A stretch of 64,000 nt of DNA, taken from Alphaproteobacteria bacterium. GTDB taxonomy: Bacteria > Pseudomonadota > Alphaproteobacteria > CAAGCB01 > CAG-977. Of the stretch, positions 8,546 to 39,017 are shown piece by piece. A model generated the notes under the pieces. It was not told where the DNA came from. It made no database searches and saw only the letters and a list, made by a program, of their open reading frames with translations. The stretch is from NCBI GenBank assembly GCA_900768185.1, contig CAAGCB010000012.1, positions 15,461 to 79,460 on the forward strand, given 5' to 3'. Position numbers and translations under genes: made by a program. How positions within the stretch are numbered: position 1 is the first letter of the stretch; each line of letters starts with the position of its first letter.

Positions 8546-8589
8546 TTTTTTTCCTTTCCGAATCGGGACGTCCCCTTTTCGTCAACAGA

Positions 8590-16312: not shown

Positions 16313-16313
16313 T

Positions 16314-17303
16314 TTACTTGTCCTGTCCCGATATGGTGCGAATCAGCAGCTTGAACGAATCGCGGACTTCGCGCAACAGGATTTCCTGACGCGCTTCGCT
16401 GCGTTTGTCTATTTGGTTGACGTTGTGATCGATTCGGCTGATAAAGCGTAAAATGTCCAAATCGGTTTGCGCGCTTTCCTGCGATTTCGCTTCATTCTTT
16501 TGCAGCTGGGAACGGATGTCGGACAGGCTTTCGACCACCTGTTCCAGCAAGGCGTTGGCATAGGCGGCGTTTGACGTGACCGTTTCGTCCGACTGGTTCC
16601 CGACCGCGGACGAATAGCGGGTCAGTGAAGCCAGATGTTCGTCCAAGCCGTTGTAAAAATTATTCTGCGCGCGTCCTGCCTGCAAATCCAAAAAGCCGAC
16701 GATCAACGCCCCCGACAACCCCAGCAGGGACGATGAAAACGCCGTTCCCATGCCCGACAGCGGCAGTTCCAGCGATGTTTTGATCGTGTTGAAAGCTTGC
16801 GTGGCTTCCTCGCCCGACACGTTCAGGGATTTGATTACGGTCGCGACGGCGCCGACGGTTTCCATCAGCCCCCAAAACGTCCCCAGCAATCCCAGAAAAG
16901 TCGACAATCCGATCAGGTATTTCGAAATGTCGCGGCTTTCCTCCAAACGCATTTCGACGGAATCCAAAATCGTGCGCGCGATGGTCGGGGAAAGGACGGC
17001 GTTTCCCTTGGCGCGGTTGTTTTTCAAAACCAAAGCCAGCGGAGACAACAGGCGCAATTTCTGCAACGCGGCGTCGTCCAAAGACAGGGCGGGGGCTTTC
17101 AGCCATTTGATTTCGCGGTACAAAGCGAAAACGGAATGGAAATTCAGTCCGACGCCGAACAGGAATACCAGCGCAATCAAACTGTTCAGGGCGGGATTGG
17201 TCAAAAAGGCATTCGACAGGACGGGAAACAAAACCGCGCCCGCGCCCGCGACCAGAATCAGAAACAAAAACATGCGCGTCACATAACGGTTCGGCAGTTC
17301 CAT
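16314..17303 (-). CDS. MotA/TolQ/ExbB proton-channel family protein
   Basis: Multiple TM helices; family signature LIGLSTFLGLLGTFWGLMETVG; 2-nt gap to the MotB-like gene. Confidence 0.7.
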   Translation of the reverse strand: MELPNRYVTRMFLFLILVAGAGAVLFPVLSNAFLTNPALNSLIALVFLFGVGLNFHSVFALYREIKWLKAPALSLDDAALQKLRLLSPLALVLKNNRAKGNAVLSPTIARTILDSVEMRLEESRDISKYLIGLSTFLGLLGTFWGLMETVGAVATVIKSLNVSGEEATQAFNTIKTSLELPLSGMGTAFSSSLLGLSGALIVGFLDLQAGRAQNNFYNGLDEHLASLTRYSSAVGNQSDETVTSNAAYANALLEQVVESLSDIRSQLQKNEAKSQESAQTDLDILRFISRIDHNVNQIDKRSEARQEILLREVRDSFKLLIRTISGQDK

Positions 17304-17318
17304 TTTTTTAAATCCTTG

Positions 17319-18485: not shown

Positions 18486-18498
18486 GGGGCTGCCTCCT

Positions 18499-19617
18499 TT
18501 ACTCCTTTGCGGGGGCGGGGGAAAGCGTTCTTTCAAACTGTTTGAACGCGTCCGATTCTTCGGGAAGCGTCAACATCTTTTTGAACGGCGTGAACAGCTG
18601 GTCGTTCGACGCGATAATCGTTCCCGCGTTCACGATGCCGACCGAATCTTCTTTACCGTCATAGGTGCAGACGCGTCCGCCCGCCTCTTTGACGATCAAC
18701 TGACCCGCGGCGACGTCCCAAGGTTTGATGTCTTCTTCGAAATAGCATTCGAAGCGACCCGCGGCGACGTAAGCCAAATCCAGCGATGCGGCGCCCATGC
18801 GGCGAACGCCCGCCGTTTTCTGCATCATCGGCATCAGCTGGCGTACGAAACGGTCGGGATTGGAATGTCCCAAATGCGGGATTCCCGTCACGACGACGGC
18901 TTCGTTCATCGTGTTGCGGTTTGAAACGTGAATGCGACGGGAACCCGACGCCGTCATCGCCCATGCGCCGCCGCCGCGTTCCGCGTAGAACAAATCGCCC
19001 GTGACGGGGTTGAAAATGACGCCCGCGACGATGTCGTTGTCTTCCTGCAAAGCCAGAGAAATCGCAAAGTGCGGAACGGCGTGCAAAAAGTTGCTGGTGC
19101 CGTCCAGCGGATCGATAATCCAGCGGTGGGACGTGTCCTCACCCGCTTTGACGCCGCTTTCCTCTTGCAAAAAACCGTAGCGGGGGCGGACTTTCAGCAA
19201 ATATTCGCGCAACGTCTTTTCAGAGTTCAAATCGGCGGTCGACGCGAAATCGGCGGCGCCTTTTTTCGAAATTTGCAGTTGTTCCAGTTCGCCGAAGTCG
19301 CGCACCAAACCGCGCCCCGCTTTCTGCACCGCCTGAATCATGACGTTCAAGGTCGGCGACAGCGACGAAATGAATTTGTCCTGACGCGATTCGCGAAACT
19401 GTTCCACGGGATCGGGACGGTTGCGGACGGGGAACGCCGATTGTTGCAGTCCCGCCGCCTGTTCGGATTTCCGCTGCAACAATTCCATCGCGCGGGTTTT
19501 GATTTCCGATTTGCGCTGGAACGTTTTGCGTTCGGTCGAAAGTTCCTCCGCGACGGCGCGGCGCACGGTCGTCCGTCTGAACGACGGACGCGGCGGTTTA
19601 ATGGTTGATTTGGGCAT
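18499..19617 (-). CDS. suhB: Inositol monophosphatase family protein (SuhB-like)
   Basis: IMPase motifs WIIDPLDGTSNFLHAVP and metal-binding region; true start is probably the internal Met at 19491, since the first ~40 residues are basic and atypical. Confidence 0.75.
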   Translation of the reverse strand: MPKSTIKPPRPSFRRTTVRRAVAEELSTERKTFQRKSEIKTRAMELLQRKSEQAAGLQQSAFPVRNRPDPVEQFRESRQDKFISSLSPTLNVMIQAVQKAGRGLVRDFGELEQLQISKKGAADFASTADLNSEKTLREYLLKVRPRYGFLQEESGVKAGEDTSHRWIIDPLDGTSNFLHAVPHFAISLALQEDNDIVAGVIFNPVTGDLFYAERGGGAWAMTASGSRRIHVSNRNTMNEAVVVTGIPHLGHSNPDRFVRQLMPMMQKTAGVRRMGAASLDLAYVAAGRFECYFEEDIKPWDVAAGQLIVKEAGGRVCTYDGKEDSVGIVNAGTIIASNDQLFTPFKKMLTLPEESDAFKQFERTLSPAPAKE

Positions 19618-25001: not shown

Positions 25002-25751
25002 ATGTCAGGTCATTCACAATTTAAAAACATCATGCACCGCAAAGGCGCGCAAGATAAAATCCGCGCTCGCACGTTTTCAAAACTGGGGCGCGAAATCACG
25101 GTCGCCGCGAAATCGGGACTGCCCGATCCGGCGTACAACCCGCGTTTGCGCGCCGCCATCGCCGCCGCTCGCGCCGAAAACATGCCAAAGGACAACATCA
25201 AGCGCGCGATTGAAAAAGCCGCCGCCGGCGACGGTGCCGACTATATGGAAATCCGTTACGAAGGTTTCGGTCCCGGAAACGTCGCCGTTATCGTCGAAGC
25301 GTTGACCGACAATCCCAAGCGCACGGCACCGATTGTTCGTTCGATTTTCGGCAAAGCCGGTTGCGTCATGGGTGAAACGGGTTCCGTCGCGTTCAATTTC
25401 CAACGCGTCGGGCTGATTGAATATCCCGCCGCCGTCGCCGAAGCCGACGCCATGTTCGAAGCCGCCTTGGAAGCCGGCGCGGACGACGTCGAATCCGACG
25501 AAGAAACGCACCGTATTCTGTGTTCGCCCGATGATTTGGGTGCGGTTCGCGACGCTTTGGAATCCAAATTCGAAACGCCGACCGTTTGCCGTCTTGATTG
25601 GAAACCGCTGGTCGAAACCGAATTGACCGACGCCGAAATCGCCAAAAAATTCTTTGATTTCGTTGAAACTCTGAATGACGAGGAAGACGTTCAGCGCGTC
25701 GCGTCGAACGTGTCCGTTTCCGACGAAATCATGGCAAAATTGGAAGGCTGA
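25002..25751 (+). CDS. yebC: YebC/PmpR family DNA-binding transcriptional regulator
   Basis: [17 protein letters not shown]-terminus diagnostic of the family. Confidence 0.9.
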
Positions 25752-25752
25752 T

Positions 25753-26271
25753 TTGGGAAAATCCGTCAGGATTTTGGGGCTTGACCCCGGCTTGCGCCAT
25801 ACTGGGTGGGCGGTAATCGATTCACGCGATTCCCGCCTGTCCTTTGTCGCCGCCGGGGTCGCTGATTCGACGGATAGTCTGTCTTTGGCGCAGCGTTTGG
25901 CGGAATTGCACCGCCAAATTCGGACGGTCATTGACGAAGCTCAACCGTCGGAGGCGGCGATCGAGCAGACTTTTGTGAACAAAAATCCCGAATCGACGTT
26001 GAAGCTGGGACAGGCGAGGGGCGCGGTTCTGCTGGCGCCCGCGCTGGCGGGAATTCCCGTTTCGGAATATACGCCGAACCAGATTAAAAAAGCCGTCGTC
26101 GGCGCCGGGCACGCCGAAAAACGGCAGGTCGACATGATGGTGCATACGCTGTTGCCCGCGGCGGGCAAATTGCGCCCCGACGCGGCGGACGCTTTGGCGG
26201 CGGCGATTTGCCATTCCTATATGCGCGTGACGGCGGAACGAATGAAATTGTTGGCGGAGCTGGCGAAATGA
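25753..26271 (+). CDS. ruvC: Holliday junction resolvase RuvC
   Basis: ILGLDPGLRHTGWAVI catalytic-Asp motif; probable TTG start at 25753 immediately after the yebC stop (ORF track ATG at 25675 overlaps yebC). Confidence 0.85.
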   Translation: MGKSVRILGLDPGLRHTGWAVIDSRDSRLSFVAAGVADSTDSLSLAQRLAELHRQIRTVIDEAQPSEAAIEQTFVNKNPESTLKLGQARGAVLLAPALAGIPVSEYTPNQIKKAVVGAGHAEKRQVDMMVHTLLPAAGKLRPDAADALAAAICHSYMRVTAERMKLLAELAK

Positions 26272-26876
26272 TAGCGAAACTGCGCGGCATGGTGGACAGT
26301 ATTGAGGACGGGTTCGTCATTTTGGACGTGAACGGCGTCGGATACAGGGTGTTCTGTTCGGCGAAAACGCAAATGAAGCTGCCCGCAAAAGGGCAGGTCG
26401 CGTCCATGCTGATCGAAACGCAGGTGCGCGAGGACGCGATTCACCTGATCGGGTTCGCGGACGCCGTCGAAAAAAACTGGTATCTGTTGCTGGGCGGCGT
26501 GCAGGGCGTCGGGACAAAGGTCGCTTTGGCGATTTTGTCGGTTTTAAGCGCGGACGAATTGTCCGTGGCGATCGCGTCGGGCGATTCAAAGGCGGTGACG
26601 CGCGCCCCCGGCGTCGGACCCAAGCTTGCCCTTCGCATCGTGACCGAATTGAAAGGCAAGGTCGGTAAAATTTCTTTGGCGGGCGCGGATTCCCCCGCGG
26701 GCGAAATCGTCCAAGCCAAAGGTTCCGCCGTTGACGACGCGGTGTCGGCTTTGGTCAATTTGGGATACGCCCGCATGGACGCCGCGATGGCGGTCGCCAA
26801 ATCGTTTAAACAACGCGGAGAAGCGGCTCAAGTCGGCGATTTGATCCGCGACGCCCTGAAAGAGTTTGCTCCATGA
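26268..26876 (+). CDS. ruvA: Holliday junction branch migration protein RuvA
   Basis: [12 protein letters not shown]...; ATGA overlap with ruvC; HhH motifs. Confidence 0.9.
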
Positions 26877-27907
26877 CCGAAGACAGAATTGTCAGTCCCG
26901 CCAAACGCGTCGGCGACGAGGATTTCGCCAACATGCGTCCGAAATCGCTGGCGGATTTTACGGGACAGCGCGCGGTTTGCGAAAATTTAAAGGTGTTCGT
27001 CACGGCGGCGCTGACCCGCGGCGAAGCTTTGGATCACGTTTTATTGTTCGGTCCGCCGGGGTTGGGGAAAACGACGTTGGCGCAAATCGTGGCGCACGAA
27101 CTGGCGGTCGGTTTCCGCGCGACCTCCGCCCCCATGATATCCAAGGCGGGCGATCTGGCGGCGATTTTGACGAATTTGGAAAAAAACGACGTTTTGTTCA
27201 TTGACGAAATCCATCGTTTGAATCCCGCGATTGAAGAAGTCCTGTACGCCGCGATGGAGGATTTCCAGCTGGATCTGATTATCGGCGAAGGTCCCGCCGC
27301 CCGTTCCGTGCGGATCGATTTGCAACCGTTCACGCTGATCGGGGCGACGACGCGGTCGGGGCTGTTGACGCAACCTTTGCGCGACCGTTTCGGCATTCCT
27401 TTGCGGCTGGATTTTTACGATCCCGCCGATTTGGAAAAGATCGTGATCCGCGGCGCGGGCGTGCTGAACACAGCCATTACCGCCGAAGGGGCGCGCGAAA
27501 TCGCCAAGCGGGCGCGGGGAACGCCGCGCGTGGCGGGGCGTTTGCTGAAGCGTGTGCGCGACTTTGCCGCGTTCGAAGGAAAAAAGGAAATCGACGCCGA
27601 CATCGCCGATCGCGCGCTGAAACGGCTGGACGTGGACAAGCAGGGGCTGGACATGATGGATCGGCGGTATCTGAACTGCATCGCGCGGAAATACGCCGGC
27701 GGTCCCGTCGGGGCGGATACGCTTGCCGCTGCTTTGTCCGAGGAACGCGACACGATTGAAGAAGTCATCGAACCCTATCTGTTGCAACAGGGGTATCTGC
27801 AACGCACGCCGCGCGGGCGCGTTCTGACCGCGTTGGGGTATAAACATCTGGGATTACCGCCGCCCGCGACGGATGCGGCGGATCTGTTTTCGAACGCGGA
27901 AAAATAG
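26873..27907 (+). CDS. ruvB: Holliday junction branch migration helicase RuvB
   Basis: AAA+ Walker [10 protein letters not shown], Walker [10 protein letters not shown], sensor residues; ATGA overlap with ruvA. Confidence 0.95.
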
Positions 27908-28105
27908 GCTTGCCGCCGTCCGGCGTGGGCGATCGGAAATCTTTGACGGCGCGCCGGCAACGAAAGGTCGCCGACTTTCCCGCATTCGGATTGAAAGCGG
28001 TCTGAAAATTTTTAGCTTGTTATCAATAATAACGGTGTTCGATTTTTGTTGAAAACACGGGGAAAGGTATATATTTTTCATTAGAACGATTAAAAGGAAC
28101 GGAAG

Positions 28106-28762
28106 ATGACCTTACGCCTCTCGTCCGGTGCCGGTTCCAAGAAGGAAGGCACGGAACAACTTGTAGAAAAGTATTTAAAAGACGTCGTTTCCGAAATGCA
28201 CTGCGTCGACGCCGTGACGCGCCATTTCGGCAAAGCCCCCAACCGCTCCGTCGAAGAATACGTGGCAAACGTGTATATGAAAAAACGCCCGTTGAAGGTC
28301 GCCGATAAAACGGCGGCGTTGTTGGCGGTGCGCGAAGCCGAAAGACACTATCGCGGCAAAATTAAAAAAATCCCTCTGCACACCCGTCTGCATTACATGA
28401 CGGGAAACGTCGGCAAAAAGAAAATCGAAGCCGCGATCGTTTGCGGCATCAGTCTGGCGGCGGGGTGCGTCGCCGTGGCGCGCGGGGCTGATCCGGCGGT
28501 CGTTCCGGCGATTCTGGCTGTCGCGGGCGGAACGCTGATGGCTGCGGACTACGCGTTGTATTCGCTGGAACCGAAAAAACACGGCGCCGAAATCCTGCGC
28601 AAAAAGGAAGTGCTGGCGAATTACACGCGCGCGAAACAGGCTCTGTTCGTTTTAAAGGCGATGGAAAAACAACTGACCGCGCGCGGCGGACAGCCGAAAA
28701 ACAAAGCGGCGGACGATGACGGTTTTACTTTTCTTATGTCAAAAAAAGGCGCGGCGCGCTGA
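28106..28762 (+). CDS. Island family A paralog 1: small membrane protein with bilobed hydrophobic segment (unknown function)
   Basis: 218 aa; ~115-aa N-terminal soluble domain, Gly/Ala-rich two-lobe hydrophobic region (residues ~115-160), basic amphipathic tail KQALFVLKAMEKQL shared with paralogs 2-5. Confidence 0.55.
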   Translation: MTLRLSSGAGSKKEGTEQLVEKYLKDVVSEMHCVDAVTRHFGKAPNRSVEEYVANVYMKKRPLKVADKTAALLAVREAERHYRGKIKKIPLHTRLHYMTGNVGKKKIEAAIVCGISLAAGCVAVARGADPAVVPAILAVAGGTLMAADYALYSLEPKKHGAEILRKKEVLANYTRAKQALFVLKAMEKQLTARGGQPKNKAADDDGFTFLMSKKGAAR

Positions 28763-28781
28763 AAAAAAACGGGGGATTGCG

Positions 28782-29435
28782 ATGGCTTTGACGATTTTAA
28801 CGGCTGAAAACGGTCGTCACGAAGACACGGCGAAACTGGTTCGCGACTATTTAAAGGGCGCGATCAAAGTGATGCGCCGCATCGACGCCGCCCGCAATTT
28901 TTACGACAAACCCGCCAATCGCCGCGTCGAACGGGTGGAGGCTTTGCGTTATATGGTCAAAAATCCGTTTTGTGTCAACGATACCGAACGGGCGGGCGAA
29001 ATGCTTGACGACGCTCAAAGATACTATGAGAAGCAAACCAAGGACGCGCCGTTGAAAGTCAAAATGGATTACGCGTTCGGTTGTGTCGGCGCGATGCTGT
29101 TGAAAGACACGTTACTGTACGGGGCGGCGCTGGCGGCGGGCGTGACGGCGGCGGCGATGAACGGCGGTTCGCCCGAATTGATTTGCGGGGCGGCGGTCGC
29201 GGCGGTCGGCATCGCGGGGGTGACGCAAATCGGCGTCGCGATGGGCAAAATGTCGCGTCCGCCGACCAAGGCGGAACGGAAACACCCCGAAACGCTGGAA
29301 CAATACACGGAAGCCAAACAGGCGCTGTTCGTTTTGAAACAAATGAAAAAACAGCTGGCGTCGTCCGTGAAAAACAACAGGGGCAAAGGCGGAAACGTCG
29401 TTGTCCCGATGCCTAACAGGTGCGTCCTTCGCTGA
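28782..29435 (+). CDS. Island family A paralog 2
   Basis: 217 aa from ATG 28782; same architecture; tail KQALFVLKQMKKQL. Confidence 0.55.
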   Translation: MALTILTAENGRHEDTAKLVRDYLKGAIKVMRRIDAARNFYDKPANRRVERVEALRYMVKNPFCVNDTERAGEMLDDAQRYYEKQTKDAPLKVKMDYAFGCVGAMLLKDTLLYGAALAAGVTAAAMNGGSPELICGAAVAAVGIAGVTQIGVAMGKMSRPPTKAERKHPETLEQYTEAKQALFVLKQMKKQLASSVKNNRGKGGNVVVPMPNRCVLR

Positions 29436-29457
29436 TTTTTACGCGAATTAAAAAAAA

Positions 29458-29495
29458 ATCGCTCGACCGATCGGGCGCGGTGTTTCTTTTTTTAC
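29458..29495 (+). terminator. Weak terminator-like element after paralog 2
   Basis: Self-complementary CCGATCGG core followed by tgtttcttttttt. Confidence 0.3.
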
Positions 29496-29574
29496 CGCCT
29501 TTAATAAAAAAAATGTTGGAAAACTGGACAAATAAAGGTATATGCTTTGTCAAGCGGGCGGAAAGGGGGTAAAA

Positions 29575-30156
29575 ATGTCTTTGACAATCGACAATCACCA
29601 AAAAACGACGGGCTTGGACGCGAAAACGGCGGAGGTCGTGGCGGCGTATGTGAACGGGCTGTATTATGCGACAAACGGCGTTCCCCGTGATTTGCGCGAC
29701 GCCGCTGCGGACGCCTATATGAAAGACAATCCGCTGAAAGTCGACGATAAAGCCGCCGCCGTGAAAGAAATCGACGCTTTGACGCGTGAATGCGAAGACG
29801 AAGCGAAGTCGGCATCGTGGCGAACCAAACTGCAATACGAATACGGTCGCAAGGGCGAACGAATCGCCAAACTGGCGATGTTGGGCGCGGCGACCGCCGT
29901 CGGAAGCGTTCTGGCGGCAAACGGCATGCCTTTGGCTTCCTCTTCCGTTTTGTTCGCGGGGCTGGTCGCCATTCAGGGAGGAAACACTCCGACGGATAGG
30001 GAAAAAGCCGATATCGAAAGATACGGCGTAATCAAGCACGGACAGTTCGTTTTGAAAAAAATGAAGCGGGCGCTGACGTCCGAAGATGACAAAGAAAACG
30101 CGTCCGCGGTCAAACGCAAAACCGTGCTGAATTTGAAACGAAACGGCGGACGCTGA
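29575..30156 (+). CDS. Island family A paralog 3
   Basis: 193 aa from ATG 29575 (RBS GGGGG); NGVPR motif in N-domain shared with paralogs 4 and 5; tail GQFVLKKMKRAL; ends NLKRNGGR. Confidence 0.6.
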   Translation: MSLTIDNHQKTTGLDAKTAEVVAAYVNGLYYATNGVPRDLRDAAADAYMKDNPLKVDDKAAAVKEIDALTRECEDEAKSASWRTKLQYEYGRKGERIAKLAMLGAATAVGSVLAANGMPLASSSVLFAGLVAIQGGNTPTDREKADIERYGVIKHGQFVLKKMKRALTSEDDKENASAVKRKTVLNLKRNGGR

Positions 30157-30180
30157 TTTCCGGTCGCCCCTTGGATTTTT

Positions 30181-30220
30181 ACGCCGCGGCATTTGGTGTC
30201 GCGGCGTTTCGCTTTTTTAG
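30181..30220 (+). terminator. Rho-independent terminator after paralog 3
   Basis: ACGCCGCG / CGCGGCGT 8-bp stem with 11-nt loop, followed by ttcgctttttt. Confidence 0.55.
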
Positions 30221-30310
30221 GGCGAAAGCGCGGTTTTCAATAAAAAATATTTGAAGAGTTGGACAAATCGTGTTAATCTTTTTGTCAAACAGACAGGAAA
30301 GGATAAGCAA

Positions 30311-30934
30311 ATGTCTTTGGTTCTCAATTCCGAAAAGGGTATGACGCTGAACGATGTTAAAACGACGATGAAAGTCGCGGCGTATCTCGGCGGCTTGGCG
30401 GAGCAAATCAACGGCGTTCCCCGTCGGTATCGCGACAGCGTCGCCGACGCCTATATGGAAGACCACCCGTTGACAGTCGACGATAAAGCCGCGGCTTACG
30501 ATCTGGTCGGAAAAATGGAAAAGCAATACAAAAAGGAAACCAAATCCGCGTCTTTGGATACGAAGCTGCAATATATGTTCGGCAACAAGGGCGCCGAAGT
30601 CGCCAAAGCGGTCGCTTTGGGCGCGGCGGCGGTCGTCGGCAGCGTGATGGCGGCGCAGGGCGTCGATCAGGCGGCGGCTCCCGCGTTCGTGATGGCGGCG
30701 GGCGCGCTTTGCACGGGGGCGCACGCGGCGACGGTGAACGACAAATATCAGACGAACGCCGTTGAAAAATACGGTGAAGCCAAACGCGCTTTGTTCGCTT
30801 TGAAAAAAATGAAAAAGGCGCTGGCGCCCGAATCGACGTACAAACAGGACGTTCAGGCACTGTACGCGTCCGGTCTGGGCAATCCCGGCGGCATGATCAC
30901 CGCGTTGAATCTGAAACAAAAAGGCGGCAGATAA
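30311..30934 (+). CDS. Island family A paralog 4
   Basis: 207 aa from ATG 30311 (RBS AGGAAAGGA); ends NLKQKGGR. Confidence 0.6.
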   Translation: MSLVLNSEKGMTLNDVKTTMKVAAYLGGLAEQINGVPRRYRDSVADAYMEDHPLTVDDKAAAYDLVGKMEKQYKKETKSASLDTKLQYMFGNKGAEVAKAVALGAAAVVGSVMAAQGVDQAAAPAFVMAAGALCTGAHAATVNDKYQTNAVEKYGEAKRALFALKKMKKALAPESTYKQDVQALYASGLGNPGGMITALNLKQKGGR

Positions 30935-30952
30935 GCCGGAAAAGGAGGAAAT

Positions 30953-31618
30953 ATGTCAATAGGACTGAACGAATCGATGACTTTTGAAAAAGCCGATAGC
31001 GCGACGATATCTCAGGTCTATATGTACTTGGGGGCTTTGGACTGCTTTACGAACGGCGTTCCCGAACGAAAACGCGGAAAGGTCGTCGACGATTTCATGC
31101 AAAAATATCCGTTGCGCGTCGATAATAAAGCCAATGCGCTGAAAACGGTCGAGTCTTTGGAAAAAATGTATGTCGACGCCGTTAAGAAAACGCCTCTGAA
31201 AACAAAAATTCAGGCGGCGTTCGGCATGAAAGCCCCCGAAAACGCTTTTAAGACGGCGTGCGTTTTGGGCGCGGCGGCGGTCGTCGGCAGCGTTATGGCG
31301 GCGCAGGGCGTCGATCATGCGGCGGCTCCCGCGCTCGTCGGCGCGCTGTCGGTCGGCATGACCGCCCTGGCGGCTGTCGTCGGCAAAACCGCGGCGGATG
31401 GAACGGAAGACAAGCCCGAAAAAATCGCAAAGGAAGAATGGAACGTTCAGAAATACGGCGATGTCAAACGCGCTTTGTTCGCTTTGAAAAAAATGAAAAA
31501 GGCGCTGACGCCCGAATCGACGTACAAACGGGACGTTCAGGCGCTGTACGCGTCCGGTCTGGGCAACCCCGGCGGCATGATCACCGCGCTGAACCTGAAA
31601 CAAAACGGCGGGCGCTGA
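30953..31618 (+). CDS. Island family A paralog 5
   Basis: 221 aa; RBS AAGGAGG; C-terminal 55 aa and one hydrophobic lobe nearly identical to paralog 4 at the DNA level; ends NLKQNGGR. Confidence 0.6.
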   Translation: MSIGLNESMTFEKADSATISQVYMYLGALDCFTNGVPERKRGKVVDDFMQKYPLRVDNKANALKTVESLEKMYVDAVKKTPLKTKIQAAFGMKAPENAFKTACVLGAAAVVGSVMAAQGVDHAAAPALVGALSVGMTALAAVVGKTAADGTEDKPEKIAKEEWNVQKYGDVKRALFALKKMKKALTPESTYKRDVQALYASGLGNPGGMITALNLKQNGGR

Positions 31619-31648
31619 TTCATCTGCGGTGCAAGGCAAGGTGTTGTG

Positions 31649-32776
31649 ATGTCGAACAATGTGGCGGAATTTTTTTCCAAAAAAGGAATTAAAAAATTCA
31701 AAAGCGGCGTGAACGCCTTTAAAAACCTCAGCACGCCGAAAAAGCTTATGGCGGGCGGCGTTTTGGCGGCGGCGTTCGCCGTCGCGACCAACACAGACAA
31801 TTACAGCCGCGTTGAAAACAGATTGAAAGCGCAAACGGTGTACGCGATTATGGAAAACGGCGACACGCTGTGCGCCTATCGGGCGATTCCGATGACGGAC
31901 GCCGATTTCGCGCGGTTGCAAAAATTGGTGAACAACGCGACGAAAACCGAATCGGGGCGCGAGATTTTAAAAGGGCTGTCCGAAACGGGGACGACTTTGC
32001 GCATCGATTATTCGGGCGAGGATAATCTGGGCTATTTTCAGCCCGACGACAATTCGATCTGTCTGGGGCGTCAGCACGGCGACGCGGATTTGCAGTCCGT
32101 TTTGATCCACGAGGGTGAACACGCTTTGCAGAACGGGCGCGTTCCCGAAAGCACCAACGGTTACACGTTTGAATCAAACGCGAAAGTTCAGCGCGTGATG
32201 GAAGCCGATGCGATGACCTTGCAAACGATGTTTTCGTTCGAAATGGCTGAAAAGGGCGACAGCGCGGCGTTGAAAATGATGACGGTCCGTCACAAGGGCA
32301 TGGTGGACGCCTATGCCGACGCTTGCGCAAAATACGGCAAAGGCAGTCCGAAGGCGTTAAAGGAAACGATGCTGAGCTGGTATGACGATAAAAACTATGT
32401 CGCCATCTATGACGAATACATGGCGGCGGAACACGCCGAAAAGGTCGGAGAAACACCGGGGATTTTGTTGCTGTCCCGTTTTTCCAAAGCCTGTGACGCC
32501 GATGCCGTTTTGGCGGGCGCTTGCCGGTATAAAGGCGTGAAATACGCGGGAACGGACGGATCTTTGCTGAATACGCCGCGCACGGCGTGGCTGAATGTGG
32601 AAACGCGCGATAAAATGTCGCGGGTTCACAACCGGCTGGTTTCCAAAACATCGGGCTTCAACGGTGACGACAGCGCGGATAATTTCTATATGTGCAAAGA
32701 CGGTGTCGTGTCTAAACAGACCTATAAACAGATTATCGCGGCGACGGTCGCCCGACGCGCGAATCAAGGACGATGA
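31649..32776 (+). CDS. Island family B paralog 1: HExxH zincin-like putative metallopeptidase with N-terminal signal/anchor
   Basis: 375 aa; N-terminal hydrophobic KKLMAGGVLAAAFAVA; HExxH as LIHEGEHALQNG with Glu-rich segment downstream; no family name recognised. Confidence 0.55.
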   Translation: MSNNVAEFFSKKGIKKFKSGVNAFKNLSTPKKLMAGGVLAAAFAVATNTDNYSRVENRLKAQTVYAIMENGDTLCAYRAIPMTDADFARLQKLVNNATKTESGREILKGLSETGTTLRIDYSGEDNLGYFQPDDNSICLGRQHGDADLQSVLIHEGEHALQNGRVPESTNGYTFESNAKVQRVMEADAMTLQTMFSFEMAEKGDSAALKMMTVRHKGMVDAYADACAKYGKGSPKALKETMLSWYDDKNYVAIYDEYMAAEHAEKVGETPGILLLSRFSKACDADAVLAGACRYKGVKYAGTDGSLLNTPRTAWLNVETRDKMSRVHNRLVSKTSGFNGDDSADNFYMCKDGVVSKQTYKQIIAATVARRANQGR

Positions 32777-32788
32777 GGAGATAAATTC

Positions 32789-33961
32789 ATGTCGAATTCC
32801 ATATCCGAATTCTTTTCCAAATCGGGAATTAAAAAGTTTAAAAACGGCGTGAGGGCTTACGCGGAACGTCAAGCGGGCAAGGTCGTCGCCGCGTCAATGG
32901 TTCTGACGGGGGCGTTCGGCGCCGTCAGCGCGCGTTCCGCCGTTGAACAGATTGAATTGACGCCTTCGCGGGTGACGGCTTACGCCGTTACGGAAAAAGG
33001 CGACACGCTTTGCAGCTATCTGGCGGAAAAAACCGACAGCGCGTCCTTCGCCCGTTTGCAGAAACTGGTCAACAACGCGACAAAAAGCAAAACGGGGTGT
33101 GAAATTCTGAAATGCGTTTCGGAACAGAACACCGTTTTGACGATAGGAGAGGCGGGACGCAACACGGTCGGATTCTTCGTCGCCGATGAAAACATGATCC
33201 GCCTGAACGGCAATTTTGACGACGCGACGTTGCAATCCTGTCTGGTGCACGAAGGAAAACATTCCGCCCAAAACGCTTCGCTGGGCAGAACGCTGGAAAG
33301 CACGAACACTTTTTTGACCAATATCGTCATGTCCCGCGTGATGGAAGCCGACGCCGTCGCGGCGCAGACCAAGTTTTCCTATGAAATGGCACAGCGGGGC
33401 GACAGCGCGGCGTGGAAATCCCTGCGCGAGGAACACGGGGAAATCGCCGACACGTTTGCAAAAAACGCTAAAAAACACGGCGTCGATAAAAAGGAAACGA
33501 TGAAGGAAACCATGCTGGCGTGGTACAAGGATAAAAGCTACACCAAGCTGTATGATCAATCCATGATCGCGTTTTACAAAAACATCGTTCGAAACGCGCC
33601 CGACAATCAAATTCAGGACAGTTTTAAGAAAAGCATCGATACCGACAAATTGATCCGCGCCGTGTGCAAATCGGGCGGCGAAACGTACGCTCGGGACGGT
33701 GCTTTGCTGATGACGCCCGAAACGGCATATCTGTCGCGCTCCGACCAGTTTTCGCTGGAAGCCCTGAATGTCTTTTTGAAACAAAGAACGGGACGCGAAG
33801 ACGTTTCGTCGAAGTTTATGTATCCCGTCGAACGTGACGGATCCGTGTCGAAAAAGACTTTCCTTCAGGAAGATCAGGCGGAGCGTCTGGCGGAAAAGAA
33901 TAAACAGAGTACGGCGAAAACGCAAAAAATCGTTAATAAAATGAATACGCGGACGCGATGA
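32789..33961 (+). CDS. Island family B paralog 2: HExxH zincin-like putative metallopeptidase
   Basis: 390 aa; RBS GAGGAG; HExxH as LVHEGKHSAQNA; collinear with family B paralog 1 across the N-terminal 250 aa; stop TGA overlaps the ybgC ATG (ATGA). Confidence 0.55.
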   Translation: MSNSISEFFSKSGIKKFKNGVRAYAERQAGKVVAASMVLTGAFGAVSARSAVEQIELTPSRVTAYAVTEKGDTLCSYLAEKTDSASFARLQKLVNNATKSKTGCEILKCVSEQNTVLTIGEAGRNTVGFFVADENMIRLNGNFDDATLQSCLVHEGKHSAQNASLGRTLESTNTFLTNIVMSRVMEADAVAAQTKFSYEMAQRGDSAAWKSLREEHGEIADTFAKNAKKHGVDKKETMKETMLAWYKDKSYTKLYDQSMIAFYKNIVRNAPDNQIQDSFKKSIDTDKLIRAVCKSGGETYARDGALLMTPETAYLSRSDQFSLEALNVFLKQRTGREDVSSKFMYPVERDGSVSKKTFLQEDQAERLAEKNKQSTAKTQKIVNKMNTRTR

Positions 33962-34371
33962 CGATGAAGACGTTTGTTTCCAAAAAATTTCTGATGTGCT
34001 ACGCCGATACCGACGCGGGCGGCGTGGTGTATCATTCCCGCTATGTCGATTTGGCCGAACGCGCGCGCATGGAAATGCTGCACGAACTGGGGGTTTGCTG
34101 TCGCGAAATGGCGGCGGCGGAAAAACCCGTCGGTTTTATGGTGCATCACATGGAAATCGATTTCAAACGCCCCGCCTATCTGGAAGACGAGCTGATCGTT
34201 GAAACAAGCGTTTTGAAAATCGGCGGCGCGACGTTTGATCTGGCGCAGACCGTCAAACGCGGCGACGAGGTGCTGGTCGAATTGAAAGTCTGCGTTCTAA
34301 CGGCGGCGGGCATCGGAAAGCCGACGCGGATCCCCGCCGAAATCAGAACGAAATTAACCGGAATTTTGTAA
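33958..34371 (+). CDS. ybgC: Tol-Pal-associated acyl-CoA thioesterase YbgC (4HBT hot-dog fold)
   Basis: 137 aa; hot-dog motif YADTDAGGVVYHSRYV; position upstream of tolQ. Confidence 0.85.
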   Translation: MTMKTFVSKKFLMCYADTDAGGVVYHSRYVDLAERARMEMLHELGVCCREMAAAEKPVGFMVHHMEIDFKRPAYLEDELIVETSVLKIGGATFDLAQTVKRGDEVLVELKVCVLTAAGIGKPTRIPAEIRTKLTGIL

Positions 34372-34433
34372 TCTGTTAATGAATATGGGTTAAACTCCCC
34401 GTCAAAACTGTAATTTTGAAGGGGAGTTTTTCT

Positions 34434-35171
34434 ATGCCGGCAGCGTCTTTGGCATCAACCGCGACCGATTTATCCATGTTCGGGTTGTTTTTACAGGCTG
34501 ATTTTATCGTTAAAGCCGTGATTATCCTTCTGATTTCGGCATCGGTGTGGACATGGGCGATCATTTTTGAAAAAGTGATGTTGTTGCGTTCGGCGAACGA
34601 TGCCGCCGGAAAATTTCTGGATAAATACGACGAAGGTCGATACGACCAGCTTTATGACGAATTGGAAAGCAAAGCGTCGTTCAGCCACGATCCGATGTCC
34701 GCCATTTTTATGAGCGCGATGAAAGAATGGCGCAAATCGTCAATGGCTTTGATGGGCGGAATCCACGGCGCCAGTCTGGCTCAGCGTTTGGACAGGATCA
34801 TGCAGGTCACGATGGATCGCGGAATGGAACGCATTGAAAAACGCATGACTTTTCTGGCGTCCACGGGAGCCGTGTCGCCGTTTATCGGTCTGTTCGGAAC
34901 GGTGTGGGGCATCATGAACAGTTTTCATAGCATCGGCGCCAGTTCCAACACGTCGCTGGCGGTCGTCGCCCCCGGCATCGCCGAAGCGTTGTTCGCGACG
35001 GCTTTGGGGCTGGTCGCCGCCATTCCCGCCGTTCTGGCGTACAACAAACTGTCCAGCGACATCAATCGCTATGCCAAAAAACTGGAAAACTTCGCAGGCG
35101 ATTTTTCCAGCATTCTGTCGCGCCAGATCGATAATATGGCGATTCGCAACGAAAAACAGCGGAACGGCTGA
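34434..35171 (+). CDS. tolQ: Tol-Pal system protein TolQ
   Basis: MotA/TolQ/ExbB signature FIGLFGTVWGIMNSF; three TM helices; followed by tolR. Confidence 0.9.
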   Translation: MPAASLASTATDLSMFGLFLQADFIVKAVIILLISASVWTWAIIFEKVMLLRSANDAAGKFLDKYDEGRYDQLYDELESKASFSHDPMSAIFMSAMKEWRKSSMALMGGIHGASLAQRLDRIMQVTMDRGMERIEKRMTFLASTGAVSPFIGLFGTVWGIMNSFHSIGASSNTSLAVVAPGIAEALFATALGLVAAIPAVLAYNKLSSDINRYAKKLENFAGDFSSILSRQIDNMAIRNEKQRNG

Positions 35172-35173
35172 CC

Positions 35174-35641
35174 ATGGGGACGAACGTTAAATTTTCCGCC
35201 AGAGGAAACCGTCGTCAACGGGCGGCGTTCGGCGACATCAACGTCACGCCGCTGGTTGACGTCATGATGGTTCTTTTGGTGATTTTCATGGTTACGGCGC
35301 CGATGATGACGACGGGCATTTCATTGGATTTGCCCCGCGGCGACGGGCAGGCGATGGAAGAATCCGACCGCGCCGTCGATATCGGCATCGACGCGCGTTC
35401 CGACATTTATCTGGGCGATAAAAAAGTATCGCCCGATACGCTGGTCAAAAAATTGAAAGCCATGCAAAAAAGCAATCCCGATTTGAAAATCGTCATCAGC
35501 GCGGACAAAGCGACGTCTTACGGTCAGGTCATCGAACTGATGAGCGTTCTGCGTCTGGCGGGAATTTCAAAGGTCGGGCTGAAGACCGCCGATATTGTCG
35601 ACATGTCCTTGTCCGATTTCAAAAAGAAGGGGAAAAAATAG
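35174..35641 (+). CDS. tolR: Tol-Pal system protein TolR (ExbD/TolR family)
   Basis: 155 aa; single TM with conserved Asp (INVTPLVDVMMVLLVIF), ExbD periplasmic domain. Confidence 0.85.
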   Translation: MGTNVKFSARGNRRQRAAFGDINVTPLVDVMMVLLVIFMVTAPMMTTGISLDLPRGDGQAMEESDRAVDIGIDARSDIYLGDKKVSPDTLVKKLKAMQKSNPDLKIVISADKATSYGQVIELMSVLRLAGISKVGLKTADIVDMSLSDFKKKGKK

Positions 35642-35644
35642 TCC

Positions 35645-36616
35645 GTGTTTGAACGATTGCGCCGCCGTTTCTTTATGCGATTGCGCCGCAGCCCCGTGCT
35701 GTTCAAGGTCGTCGTCGGCGCGCGCGATCATTTGCCGATGGTTTTGTCGCTGGCGCTGCATGCGTTCGTCGTTATTTTGCTGACGGTCGATTTCGTCGCC
35801 GAATCCAAAGATCGGGTCGTGTCCGTACCGATGTTCGTCGTTGATTTGAGCAAGGTTAAAATCGCCGAAATGACGAACTTGCCGCCGAAACTGACCTTGT
35901 CGAAATCAAAGGCGAAATCCGCGCCGAAAGGAACGGTGCGCACCTCCGCGTACAGCAAGGCGTCGAAAGGCGACGCGTCGCAGTCAAGCTTTGTCGCGTC
36001 GAAATCGTCTTTGAACGGCGCGATGCTGGAAAACGAATTGAGCGGATTGTTGAAAAAGGTTTCGAAATCGAAAAAATCCAAAGACGAAGAACTGTCCAAT
36101 TCGATTAAAAACATCGCCAAATCGGCTGACAAGGACGCTTTTAAAACTCTGTTGGCGTCGGTTGACGGCATCAAAAGCGGCATGGGGTACGCGGACGAAA
36201 GCACGGCGGACGCCGATCCCGACGATATGGTCACGCGGGGGATCGAAGGCGGGCAAGGCGGCAGCTATATGCAGGAACTCAGCGTTTCCGAAAAAGACAT
36301 GATCGGCATTAAATTGCGCGAATGCTGGAATTTGGACGCCGGCGTGCGTGGCGCGCAAAACATGCTGATTGAAATCCGCGTCTTTTTGACGCCGGAAGGG
36401 GCGGTCAAAGACGTTAAAATTTTAAACAAAGCCAGATACAACAAAGATACGGCGTTTCGTTCCGTCGCGGAAAGCGCGCGGCGCGCCGTTTATATCTGCG
36501 ATAAAAAGAACGACGCTTCCCCGTTCAGGATCTTTCCCGATCATTACGGGCAATCCTATGACATGTGGAAGACGCTGTTGCTCAGGTTCAACCCGTTTGA
36601 CGGCGGAGTGATGTGA
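35645..36616 (+). CDS. tolA: Tol-Pal system protein TolA
   Basis: N-terminal TM anchor, Lys/Ala/Ser-rich extended region, C-terminal TolA/TonB-like domain; position between tolR and tolB. Confidence 0.6.
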   Translation: MFERLRRRFFMRLRRSPVLFKVVVGARDHLPMVLSLALHAFVVILLTVDFVAESKDRVVSVPMFVVDLSKVKIAEMTNLPPKLTLSKSKAKSAPKGTVRTSAYSKASKGDASQSSFVASKSSLNGAMLENELSGLLKKVSKSKKSKDEELSNSIKNIAKSADKDAFKTLLASVDGIKSGMGYADESTADADPDDMVTRGIEGGQGGSYMQELSVSEKDMIGIKLRECWNLDAGVRGAQNMLIEIRVFLTPEGAVKDVKILNKARYNKDTAFRSVAESARRAVYICDKKNDASPFRIFPDHYGQSYDMWKTLLLRFNPFDGGVM

Positions 36617-36617
36617 T

Positions 36618-37946
36618 ATGAAAAGACTGTTTTTTGCTTGTTTGCTGTTTGTTTTCGGCGTCGTTCCGGCGGCGCGCGCGGAGCTGAGCATCGATATTAC
36701 GGGCGCGCGTTCCGAACCGATGAAAACGGGACTGCCCGTGTTTTCGTCAAACGGGGCGGCGGGGGCTAAAATCGCCAAAGACATGACGAACGTCATCGAA
36801 AGCGATCTGGAAAGCTCCGGTCTGTTCCGCATTTTGGATTCCATGGCGTATTTGCAGACGTTCAAATCGATTTCGGACGCCCCCGCTTTCGTCGATTGGC
36901 AGGCGATCAAGGCAGAAGCGCTGATACAAGGGCACGTTGATTACCAAAATCCCAAAAAAATACGCGTTTCCGTTCGTTTGTGGGACGTGTACGCGGCGCA
37001 GGAAATGTATTCCGCGACGTTGGAAATCGCCCAAAACGGCTGGCGTCGCGCGGCGCACATGATCGCGGACGCCGTTTATAAACGCGTTACGGGCGAAGAC
37101 GGGTATTTCGATACCCGCATCGTGTACATCGCCGAAACGGGGTCGCCGCTGAACCGCATCAAACGGCTGGCGATTATGGATCAGGACGGCGAAAACCACC
37201 AGTTTTTGACCGACGGTTTGAATTTGGTTTTAACGCCGCGTTTTTCGCCGAACATGCAACAGATCACCTATCTGTCGTTTTACAAGGACACGCCCCGCGT
37301 CTATCTGTTCGACATCGAAACGGGCAAACAGCAGGTCGTCGGCGATTTCCCCGGCATGACGTTCGCGCCGCGTTTTTCGCCCGACGGGCATAAACTGATC
37401 ATGTCGATGGCGGAAAACGGCAAAACCGACATTTACGAGATGAACCTCGATACCCGCGCGGTGCGTTTGCTGACGCCGAAATCGCGCGCGATCGACACGT
37501 CGCCCAGTTATTCGCCCGACGGAAAAAGAATCGTGTTCAATTCCGACCGCAGCGGGGCGCAGCAGCTGTACGTCATGGATTCGAACGGTAAAAACGTCAA
37601 GCGCATCAGTTTCGGCAAAGGACGGTACGCCACGCCCGTGTGGTCGCCTCGCGGGGACTATATCGCTTTTACGAAAATGCTGGGAGGCAAGTTTTATATC
37701 GGCGTGATGTTCCCCGACGGCAAGGGCGAACGGCTGGTGGCGGAAGGCTATCTGGTCGAAGCGCCGACATGGTCGCCGAACGGACGCATTTTGATGTATT
37801 TCCGCCAAGATCCGCCCAATCGTTTCGGCATACCGGGGGCGACGAAGATTTACGCCGTCGACATTACGGGGTATAACGAACGCCGCCTGATTACGCCGAT
37901 CGACGCGTCGGATCCCGCGTGGTCGCCGCTTTTGTCGAAACGCTGA
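36618..37946 (+). CDS. tolB: Tol-Pal system beta-propeller protein TolB
   Basis: Signal peptide, TolB N-domain, repeated SPxFSPDG propeller blades. Confidence 0.9.
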   Translation: MKRLFFACLLFVFGVVPAARAELSIDITGARSEPMKTGLPVFSSNGAAGAKIAKDMTNVIESDLESSGLFRILDSMAYLQTFKSISDAPAFVDWQAIKAEALIQGHVDYQNPKKIRVSVRLWDVYAAQEMYSATLEIAQNGWRRAAHMIADAVYKRVTGEDGYFDTRIVYIAETGSPLNRIKRLAIMDQDGENHQFLTDGLNLVLTPRFSPNMQQITYLSFYKDTPRVYLFDIETGKQQVVGDFPGMTFAPRFSPDGHKLIMSMAENGKTDIYEMNLDTRAVRLLTPKSRAIDTSPSYSPDGKRIVFNSDRSGAQQLYVMDSNGKNVKRISFGKGRYATPVWSPRGDYIAFTKMLGGKFYIGVMFPDGKGERLVAEGYLVEAPTWSPNGRILMYFRQDPPNRFGIPGATKIYAVDITGYNERRLITPIDASDPAWSPLLSKR

Positions 37947-38037
37947 AAAACCGCGAAAAAACAGTTGCGAAACCTTGCGATTTTATTTACATTCAATCAC
38001 AGAGGAATCAATTCACCTTTGTTTAGGAGCATTTTTA

Positions 38038-38493
38038 ATGAAAAAACATCTGATTGCCGCTTTTGCCGCCGTCGCTTTGGTTTCGGGTTGCGCTTCCAAC
38101 GCCCCCGTCGAAGAAGACGTCAATGTCAACGTTGCCGTTGAAGAAGGTCAGGAATCCGTCATGAACGCCAAAGACCGCGTTTATTTCGGTTTCGATCAGT
38201 ACAATCTGACCAACGAAGCGATGGAAGTTTTGCAGGAACAGGCGCGTTTTCTGGTCGACAATCCCGAAGCGTCCGTCGTTGTCGAAGGTCACACCGACGA
38301 TCGCGGCACGCGCGATTACAACTTGGCTCTGGGCGAACGCCGCGCGGTTTCCGTTAAAAACTATCTGATCGCCAACGGTGTCGACGCCGGTCGCATTCGC
38401 GTCATCTCTTACGGCAAGGAACGTCCCGCCGTCGTCGGCGCGAACGAAGCCGCTTGGGCTCAAAACCGCCGCGCCGTCACGGTTGTGAAGTAA
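38038..38493 (+). CDS. pal: Peptidoglycan-associated lipoprotein Pal
   Basis: Lipobox LVSGCAS; OmpA-C domain VEGHTDDRGTRDYNLALGERRAVSVKNYL. Confidence 0.9.
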   Translation: MKKHLIAAFAAVALVSGCASNAPVEEDVNVNVAVEEGQESVMNAKDRVYFGFDQYNLTNEAMEVLQEQARFLVDNPEASVVVEGHTDDRGTRDYNLALGERRAVSVKNYLIANGVDAGRIRVISYGKERPAVVGANEAAWAQNRRAVTVVK

Positions 38494-38588: not shown

Positions 38589-39017
38589 ATGAATAAAAAA
38601 ATGCTGGGCGCGCTGGGCGCGCTGATGATGGTGTCGGCGTGCGCGCATCACGCCACGACGTGCGAAAACTTTAAACAGGTGTTTAAACAGGAACAGGTGT
38701 TGTTTTCGTCAAACAGGGCGGAGCTGGACGCCGAAAGCAAAGCCGTTCTGGATCATCAGGCCGACTGGCTGAAAAAGAATCCGCGCAGAAAAGTCGTCAT
38801 TCAGGGATACGCCGATCCGCGCGGAACGGAAGCCCATAACATGAATTTGGGTATGAAGCGCGCCGACGCGGTTAAAGCTTATCTGGTTAAATCGGGCGTC
38901 AATCCCGATCAAATCGCCGTGACCAGCAAAGGCGCGACCGAACTGGCGACCACGCAGAACACCACGCAGGGGTGGACGGCGGACCGCCGCGCCCTGACGC
39001 TGATCGTAACGGAATGA
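38589..39017 (+). CDS. Second OmpA-family lipoprotein (Pal paralog)
   Basis: Lipobox MVSACAH; OmpA-C domain IQGYADPRGTEAHNMNLGMKRADAVKAYL. Confidence 0.7.
   Translation: MNKKMLGALGALMMVSACAHHATTCENFKQVFKQEQVLFSSNRAELDAESKAVLDHQADWLKKNPRRKVVIQGYADPRGTEAHNMNLGMKRADAVKAYLVKSGVNPDQIAVTSKGATELATTQNTTQGWTADRRALTLIVTE

Follow-up and report, generated by a model that had tools for sequence, protein, structure and literature searches.

Between ruvB and the ybgC-tolQRAB-pal genes of an uncultured alphaproteobacterium from the human gut lie seven genes, all on the + strand, that encode two families of proteins with one kind of C-terminal tail. The DNA in question is a stretch of 64,000 nucleotides (nt) of contig CAAGCB010000012.1, here called the window. 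Five of the genes (A1 to A5) encode proteins of ~200 amino acids (aa) with a hydrophobic two-helix hairpin, which we call family A; the other two (B1 and B2) encode HExxH proteins of ~380 aa, family B, which match the Pfam family DUF6782. A sequence-only reading of the window had described these seven genes, and we verified both their open reading frames (ORFs) and the two architectures; the same seven genes were called by an independent public gene caller on the source contig, a 183-kb human-gut metagenome scaffold. There appears to be no earlier description of the pairing of family A with DUF6782, of the tail shared by the two, of a GYGNPGG motif in family A or of the constant placement in front of tol-pal. 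We tentatively favour, as possible rather than probable, a reading in which A and B are the co-exported, effector-like cargo of a route that recognises a C-terminal signal and would resemble type IVA secretion in its operation.

The tail common to the two families has the form hydrophobic-x-hydrophobic-K-x(2-4)-(G)R-COOH. Arginine is the C-terminal residue in 83 of 94 family A proteins and in 137 of 138 family B proteins, and when redundancy was reduced the counts were 46 of 54 and 8 of 9, respectively. The last 20 aa of the proteins in these reduced sets have a net charge of +2.9 for A and +3.7 for B, against a background mean of +0.06 (s.d. 2.1) for the 53 other called genes of the window, four of which end in Arg. 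Within family A the tail follows the consensus [IVL]-x-A-[AL]-L-K-K-K-x-G-G-R, and the terminal Arg is among the four columns that are invariant across 30 diverse A proteins, for which mean column identity is 26%. The tail is carried by unrelated proteins encoded in adjacent genes, a situation that usually points to a signal for sorting or to a docking motif in common. It is most simply read in the cytoplasm, since a cytoplasmic location is predicted for the tail of family A and a signal peptide is missing from most DUF6782 proteins.

Several other explanations of the tail were tried and rejected. The terminal GGR is not a by-product of the Shine-Dalgarno sequence of the next gene: such sequences are intergenic, and lone A genes retain the tail. 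Mimicry of a ubiquitin-like LRGG end by ...LKQKGGR is at odds with the pattern of conservation, because the GG is kept neither in B nor in many A proteins; what is kept is the terminal Arg and the basic character. Likenesses of the family A motif or the tail to WH2 motifs, FtsZ tails or PDZ ligands were loose, and we dropped them.

Tails of the same or a similar type were also seen in other proteins. In the sister genome UBA6347 (locus L005; the loci compared here have L numbers), a gene amid the family A array (3214-5325, +) encodes a 703-aa HEFQH protein with a long low-complexity C-terminal half and no Pfam match, which ends in ...ARAQNAGR. This gene is without counterpart in the window, and neither hhalign nor Pfam supported the protein as a divergent member of DUF6782. 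The window itself encodes two paralogous proteins of ~235 aa (49218-49922 and 53490-54209, both on the - strand) that are 51% identical, have no signal peptide and match PPPDE/C97 peptidase and TseH-like models below threshold, with E-values between 3e-4 and 1e-2. Both have a strongly basic C-terminal half, and in one of them the end, ...LVSKLAMTR, resembles the tail of A and B. The gene between these paralogs (50157-51911, -) encodes a 584-aa signal-peptide protein, Cys-rich at the N-terminus and Ser/Thr/Gly-rich thereafter.

The sequence-only reading had been unable to place either family in a Pfam-type family; this proved right for A and wrong for B. B1 and B2 match PF20573 (DUF6782, 'putative metallopeptidase family') with 133.3 and 143.0 bits (E 1e-38 and 1e-41; gathering threshold 27 bits), over positions 14-240 of the 241 in the model, and precomputed PF20573 matches are on record for all of the 200+ relatives. 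The two proteins are 43% identical to each other and have the sequences HEGEH (B1) and HEGKH (B2) at residue 154. Across 20 diverse relatives, H154, E155, H158 and E186 (within RVMEADA) are invariant, and two Cys residues are invariant in the family. The AlphaFold2 model of B2 is confident (predicted local distance difference test score, pLDDT, 85). By fold, family B is a zincin, a class defined by an HExxH-bearing active-site helix that packs against a mixed sheet, with the third ligand coming from the helix that follows. Family B is most likely a zinc metallopeptidase, with putative activity, because this modelled zincin fold is accompanied by an invariant HExxH and a downstream Glu (MEADA). 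Among known systems, those closest to family B include zincin (gluzincin-type) metallopeptidases of solved structure: the light chains of botulinum neurotoxin (M27), the lethal factor of anthrax, the M1 aminopeptidases, thermolysin, Wss1 and the minigluzincins. A sequence search of the PDB with family B gave no match. No member of DUF6782 is known to have been characterised, and our full-text searches of a paper library found no paper that names DUF6782 or PF20573 and nothing functional on the gut clade.

Family B had been described as having an N-terminal signal or anchor, and we did find one hydrophobic stretch, preceded by a basic N-terminus. These belong to a clade-specific segment of ~55 residues in B1 and B2, predicted to form a conserved, basic amphipathic helix and then a Gly/Ala helix of weak hydrophobicity. 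Conservation is high over residues 1-27 (MSNSVSEFFSKKGIKKFKNG...). The h-region is a Gly/Ala stretch of 15 residues that ends in AFA or AFG, directly followed by Cys in some orthologues; at +5.4 kcal/mol or more, it is too weak for a stable anchor. B1 and B2 differ from other DUF6782 proteins in this extra segment and in an extra C-terminal extension of ~90 aa that includes the basic tail. The DUF6782 proteins encoded beside A genes at two loci outside the clade, L034 and L025 (PF20573, E 1e-42 to 1e-57), start at once with the domain, without any hydrophobic segment before it; the N-terminal segment of B1 and B2 is therefore an addition peculiar to this clade.

The five family A proteins of the window align over their full length, with 27-33% identity to A1, and have one common architecture. 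A variable N-terminal domain of ~100 aa (total lengths in the family range from 200 to 440 aa) is followed by the hairpin, which consists of two Gly/Ala-rich hydrophobic lobes around a loop of 4-6 residues (for example, ADPAVV, NGMP or QGVDQA). The loops contain no Lys or Arg, being uncharged or having a single acidic residue, and both flanks of the hairpin are basic; hence, an N-in/C-in topology is predicted. The lobes are marginally hydrophobic, with 19-residue Hessa sums of +2.1 to +5.7 kcal/mol, compared with 0.1-0.8 for the anchors of TolR, TolA and FtsH. After the hairpin comes a conserved basic amphipathic helix, Y-x-x-x-K-x-x-x-F-x-L-K-x-M, and after this helix the motif S-Y-K-(D/E)-E-V-x-x-L-(F/Y)-A-x-G-(Y/L)-G-(N/Q)-P-(S)-G-G-(M/L)-(I/V), in zero to six copies: none in A1-A3, one in A5 and one in A4 (YK-DV-ALYASGLGNPGGMIT), three in the member P0186, four in P0212 and six in P0190.

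Family A belongs to no described family. Its members, distant ones included, gave no match in Pfam, NCBIfam, PADLOC or PHROGs, and 14 family A proteins gave no match at E ≤ 1 to the glycine-zipper 2TM family (PF05433) and its relatives. The structure model is all-helical and of low confidence (pLDDT 62), and a fold search with it returned generic helical hairpins only. The family is small: an exhaustive profile search of 1.84 billion representative proteins identified only 60 clusters at E ≤ 1e-3, all from uncultured Alphaproteobacteria; the few named members are each a 'hypothetical protein [Alphaproteobacteria bacterium]' from metagenome-assembled genomes.

We annotated the fetched loci with local hidden Markov model and phmmer searches, together with contig look-ups. 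In all eight related lineages examined, the A-B module lies directly 5' of ybgC-tolQRAB-pal-pal on the same strand, with between one and five A genes and between one and three B genes; the block is therefore not a fresh insertion, as the sequence-only reading had maintained. The window has five A and two B genes, L002-L004 have two of each, and L009 has two A and three B. The longest array, in L005, runs from three A genes through the 703-aa HExxH gene to two further A and three B genes. The shortest follow ruvB with one A gene and then either one B gene (L007 and L008) or two (L006 and L016), and in L006-L008 there are hardly any intergenic gaps in the module. The upstream neighbour in L002 is rpe, on the opposite strand, instead of ruvB, and here the link to tol-pal is kept; we conclude that tol-pal is the constant partner of the module. 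The presence of the block throughout related genomes with an annotated function had been named as grounds for giving up the sequence-only reading, and half of this was found: the block is universal in the clade, with no annotated function. The organisms are uncultured anaerobic human-gut Alphaproteobacteria, known only as metagenome bins and widespread in gut metagenomes (British, Hadza and Nepali samples). The record that holds L009 (CAVCSV010000009.1) is titled 'Limosilactobacillus gorillae' yet has an alphaproteobacterial tol-pal cluster and the A-B module, and is probably mis-binned.

A metagenome scan for family A used nine sequences. Outside the clade, family A is present at no fewer than 12 loci without tol-pal, in varied housekeeping contexts. 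Five tandem A genes precede mgsA in L010, three follow rpoA-rplQ in L022, and other sites are after gyrB, before groES, after recA and beside ruvX. Three DUF6782 genes are followed by one A gene in L034, and a double-domain DUF6782 gene is convergent with an A gene in L025. Since these two loci pair the families in other arrangements, the association of A with B is not an accident of one locus. L019 has a VirB8 gene (PF04335, E 2.6e-19; 8339-9085, +) ~640 nt 3' of an A gene (6995-7702); no other gene of a type IV secretion system (T4SS) is visible in this 14.7-kb locus. A RadC gene is directly upstream of the A gene in L019.

Within the clade, the block is an old, vertically inherited feature with changing copy number. 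Comparison of the window with L006-L008 gave identities of 90-92% for RuvB, 86-89% for TolB, 75% for TolQ, 68-71% for TolA and 60-63% for YbgC, and of 42-53% for B and, at best, 47-49% for A; with L016 the values were 90% for RuvB, 44-54% for B and 30% for A. Against L005, the rate of nonsynonymous substitution (dN) is 0.13-0.16 for B and 0.016-0.022 for TolB and RuvB, B exceeding RuvB or TolB 3-8 times. The ratio of this rate to that of synonymous substitution (dS), again against the L005 orthologues, is 0.16-0.49 for A and 0.20-0.30 for B; A and B are under purifying selection and are, therefore, real coding genes. RuvB, TolB, TolR and YbgC have dN/dS values of 0.04-0.10, and Pal (0.24), TolQ (0.28) and TolA (0.16) lie within the range of A and B, so that the constraint on A and B is relaxed relative to RuvB, TolB, TolR and YbgC only. 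Long antisense ORFs (246-343 aa; 29413-30192, 30179-30919, 30956-31921 and 32894-33925, all on the - strand) overlap the A and B genes; we discarded them as Arg-rich shadow ORFs with neither homologue nor gene-caller support.

Parts of the A genes also appear to have been exchanged or duplicated. A4 and A5 are 93% identical in nucleotide sequence over their last 168 nt and over the first lobe, next to N-terminal domains that have diverged, indicating gene conversion or mosaic duplication between the two. A1 is 90% identical to its orthologue in L005, with a dN/dS of 0.49 (0.26 for A2). The dS of this segment (window 28106-29435, L005 956-2296) is 0.10 for A1 and 0.16 for A2, well under the ~0.35-0.38 of ruvB, ybgC and tolB, which hints at a recent recombination of the A1-A2 segment between lineages.

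The whole block had been regarded as translationally coupled to the tol-pal operon. At the junction itself this is correct, the B2 stop and the ybgC start sharing 4 nt (ATGA); the block as a whole is probably not one transcript. The spacers from A4 through A5, B1 and B2 to ybgC (18, 30, 12 and -4 nt) reflect tight packing for these genes only. Given these spacers, the gap of 198 nt between ruvB and A1 and the terminator-like hairpins after A2 and A3 (Table 1), coupling to tol-pal is solid for the last four genes only; A1-A2 seem to form one transcription unit and A3 another. Terminator-like sites are no more numerous in the region than expected from shuffling, and the promoter-like hexamers upstream of A3 and A4 were read by eye; all these signals are pattern matches, not functional evidence. 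A3 and A4 may share a promoter or operator in the form of the conserved element that precedes each. An AT-rich upstream element of ~50 nt (AATAAAAAA..TGGACAAAT..TTTGTCAA) also precedes A paralogs in L002, L005 and L009, where it was seen in read-through translations.

In the reading that we favour, the shared tail would be a C-terminal export signal for both A and B, and both families would be handled in the manner of type IVA (VirB/VirD4-type) secretion substrates. Family A would act as a transmembrane effector whose final form is a hairpin in the target membrane, and B as a protease delivered together with it; the position before ybgC-tol-pal would mainly supply constitutive expression. Membrane topology, protease activity, export, export route and target are what we infer here. 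An N-in/C-in two-helix hairpin is typical of T4SS transmembrane effectors, and in type IVA systems VirD4 recognises a C-terminus of positive charge as the signal (PMC12981334, a 2026 review); the tails of A and B are positively charged too. The transmembrane segments of exported effector membrane proteins are the subject of PMC6110835, and Legionella transmembrane effectors are secreted via an inner-membrane intermediate (PMC11602083). The likeness of A to T4SS transmembrane effectors extends, as far as can be predicted, to the short loop, the moderate hydrophobicity and the expansion of paralogs, and a basic extreme C-terminus is shared with soluble co-encoded proteins. The differences are that A and B have no sequence similarity to known effectors and that their genes lie inside a housekeeping operon.

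Other observations are consistent with export of this kind. The DUF6782 proteins of L034 and L025, without an N-terminal hydrophobic segment, mean that a tail signal shared with A would need to be read in the cytoplasm. Tandem expansion, copy-number flux, scattered paralogs, the mosaicism of A4 and A5, repeated motifs and fast divergence fit an effector repertoire, and the A gene of L019 that lies close to VirB8 gives further support. Thus, the effector-like interpretation that had been offered for the locus is viable, and it gains support from the shared basic tail and the predicted N-in/C-in hairpin. That interpretation had also noted a resemblance of A to the inclusion membrane (Inc) proteins. 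Like chlamydial Inc proteins, the A proteins have a bilobed hydrophobic domain of ~40-45 residues, within the 40-60 aa of the Inc domain, and are otherwise soluble, fast-evolving and multi-copy. They differ in origin, signal and family: Inc proteins come from another phylum, have no sequence similarity to A and carry an N-terminal type III secretion signal, whereas A, in an alphaproteobacterial context, has a conserved C-terminal tail.

Several points weigh against export as effector-like cargo. We found no secretion machinery in the 64-kb window or in the ~10 kb upstream, which hold only housekeeping genes, and the single VirB8 neighbour may be a coincidence. A fixed position in a housekeeping operon, with B2 coupled to ybgC, is not usual among effectors and fits a role in the envelope. 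Export of B1 and B2 to the periplasm by Sec is suggested by their h-region, with its AFA or AFG end, and by the invariant pair of Cys residues. Neither positive nor diversifying selection was demonstrated, every dN/dS against L005 being below 1. The tail consensus of Agrobacterium substrates is R-x7-R-x-R-x-R, from which the A/B tail differs in detail. Finally, we know of no intracellular or contact-dependent lifestyle among the host organisms.

The chief alternative, which we consider somewhat unlikely, is that A and B form a module that resides in the envelope and is tied to Tol-Pal. In that case B would be a Sec-exported zinc peptidase, periplasmic or tethered to the inner membrane, acting for example on links between peptidoglycan and outer membrane or on envelope proteins during constriction; the A hairpin would sit in the inner membrane as a partner, regulator or substrate of B, and the tail would bind a common partner. 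The constant position immediately 5' of tol-pal argues for such a role, as do the retention of that link in L002 where the link to ruvB is broken, the ATGA overlap, the near-gapless modules of L006-L008 and the signal-like N-terminus of B with its invariant Cys pair; moreover, the A and B genes are apparently core in the clade as well as under purifying selection. In this clade the module shares conserved position, co-orientation and translational coupling with the Tol-Pal accessory genes ybgC and cpoB/ybgF. It differs from them in its restriction to one clade, its variable copy number, its fast evolution and the occurrence of family A away from tol-pal, and to our knowledge it is absent from tol-pal clusters elsewhere. 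Many A arrays and single A genes have neither tol-pal nor B nearby, however, and the typical A-adjacent DUF6782 proteins have no signal peptide. An exported B would also carry its tail in a different compartment from the tail of A, which is predicted to be cytoplasmic. Housekeeping parts seldom range from one to five copies or fall to 30-50% identity beside a TolB at 86-89%, and residues 1-27 of B are far more conserved than the n-region of a normal signal peptide.

Two further possibilities seem very improbable to us. One is that A is a holin-like protein (class II holin or pinholin, with two weakly hydrophobic helices and a charged C-terminus) and B an endolysin-like protein, soluble or of the signal-anchor-release (SAR) type, the pair having been domesticated for controlled lysis or for release of vesicles or cargo. 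The order of the genes, membrane protein before hydrolase, is that of such a cassette; the helices of A and of the B N-terminus are weakly hydrophobic and Gly/Ala-rich, and resemble SAR domains; and both anchored and soluble forms of DUF6782 occur beside A genes. However, the module proteins gave no match in a PHROG search and have no relatives in 50,697 phage records or IMG/VR; A proteins do not resemble holins, given their 200-440 aa, their N-terminal domain of 100 aa and their repeated motifs; no cell-wall hydrolase is known among the relatives of DUF6782; a lysis cassette co-transcribed constitutively with tol-pal would kill the cell; and the shared tail would be left unexplained.

The other is a toxin-immunity or bacteriocin locus, and we think it no more credible than the lysis cassette. 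B would be a zincin toxin and the A paralogs an array of membrane immunity proteins, or the roles would be reversed, A being a pore-former with a colicin-like hydrophobic hairpin. Group A colicins enter by way of Tol, and variable copy number, tandem arrays, fast divergence, 'orphan' A genes elsewhere and an Ala-rich helical hairpin within a helical A protein are all in keeping with this. Yet neither PADLOC nor the Pfam colicin and immunity families gave a match, and A does not qualify as a pore-forming colicin, which has the Pfam colicin pore-forming domain and a bundle of ten helices, the hairpin being helices 8-9. A tail identical in type to that of B, together with conserved linear motifs, is atypical of immunity proteins; the catalytic core of B is conserved, unlike a polymorphic toxin tip; and the module, apparently core in the clade, is without a delivery domain or lysis gene. 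A known anti-phage defence system was likewise rejected, as PADLOC gave no match.

Although ruvB and ybgC are contiguous in many other Alphaproteobacteria and the GC content of the block (0.52-0.55) is slightly under that of the ruv genes (0.57-0.60), a recent mobile island or prophage remnant inserted at this junction, the sense in which the term island in the sequence-only reading could be taken, is hardly credible and is effectively refuted by the conserved synteny, for the block occupies the same site in all relatives, down to 90% RuvB identity, has the same GC content as tol-pal, lacks tRNA genes, integrase genes, flanking repeats and Rfam elements, and has no A or B relatives among plasmids and the phage records (by tblastn) or in IMG/VR.

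Table 1. Genes and sequence elements in and around the A-B module (window coordinates).
Feature	Position	Strand	Description
yebC-ruvC-ruvA-ruvB	25002..27907	+	upstream flank; link to module broken in one relative, L002
yebC	25002-25751	+	upstream flank
ruvB	26873-27907	+	last gene before module
A1	28106..28762	+	family A, 218 aa; hairpin 28430-28561; GNPGG motif absent; tail FTFLMSKKGAAR
A2	28782..29435	+	family A, 217 aa, start MALTIL; hairpin 29109-29246; tail VVVPMPNRCVLR
Terminator-like hairpin, T-rich tail	29460..29487 (hairpin 29460-29477)	+	after A2; pattern match
Conserved upstream element	29503..29553	+	before A3; AATAAAAAA...CTGGACAAAT...TTTGTCAA; promoter-like TTGGAA-N17-TATATG
A3	29575..30156	+	family A, 193 aa, start MSLTID; hairpin 29863-29979; tail KTVLNLKRNGGR
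Terminator-like hairpin, 12-bp stem (8 G-C pairs), T run	30181..30217 (hairpin 30181-30207)	+	after A3; pattern match
Conserved upstream element, second copy	30239..30288	+	before A4; AATAAAAAA...TTGGACAAAT...TTTGTCAA; promoter-like TTGAAG-N17-TAATCT
A4	30311..30934	+	family A, 207 aa; hairpin 30599-30730; tail ITALNLKQKGGR
A5	30953..31618	+	family A, 221 aa; hairpin 31256-31387; one GNPGG motif; tail ITALNLKQNGGR
B1	31649..32776	+	DUF6782 zincin-like, 375 aa; HEGEH 32108-32122; MEADA 32198-32212; tail AATVARRANQGR
B2	32789..33961	+	DUF6782 zincin-like, 390 aa; HEGKH 33248-33262; MEADA 33341-33355; tail QKIVNKMNTRTR
ybgC-tolQ-tolR-tolA-tolB-pal	33958..38493	+	physically coupled to module in every relative examined
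ybgC	33958-34371	+	first gene after module

Other genes of the window were noted in passing. Directly 3' of pal is a second, shorter OmpA-domain (Pal-like) gene (38589-39017, +), which is kept in all relatives; downstream of it are genes for a cpoB-like tetratricopeptide repeat protein, tilS and ftsH. A cluster on the - strand (15248-18536) comprises an OmpA-domain gene, a MotA/ExbB-like gene (a faint match) and a second OmpA-domain gene, and may be a second Tol/Mot-like stator system. At 46209-49241 (+), a Type ISP/MmeI-like restriction-modification gene (712 aa) follows a 267-aa ORF without a Pfam match, which may be a split N-terminal fragment.

In its widest form, which we regard as unlikely, export as effector-like cargo would make the tail a previously unrecognised export signal, and the proteins that bear it the substrate repertoire of a prevalent uncultured gut clade. 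These bacteria, taken to be commensals, would then send membrane-inserting proteins and proteases into the cells of the host, of protists or of other bacteria, and the core pair would be firmly wired to the Tol-Pal operon. That repertoire would include the hairpin GYGNPGG proteins, the DUF6782 zincins, the further HExxH family and possibly the PPPDE-like proteins of the window. If the tail is an export signal, it would offer a simple sequence handle with which to list the secreted proteins of the clade, and it would point to contact-dependent interaction with host or microbial cells. If the module is instead an accessory of Tol-Pal, it would be a rare, lineage-specific and fast-evolving addition to a very conserved envelope machine. 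Either outcome would provide the first functional context for DUF6782.

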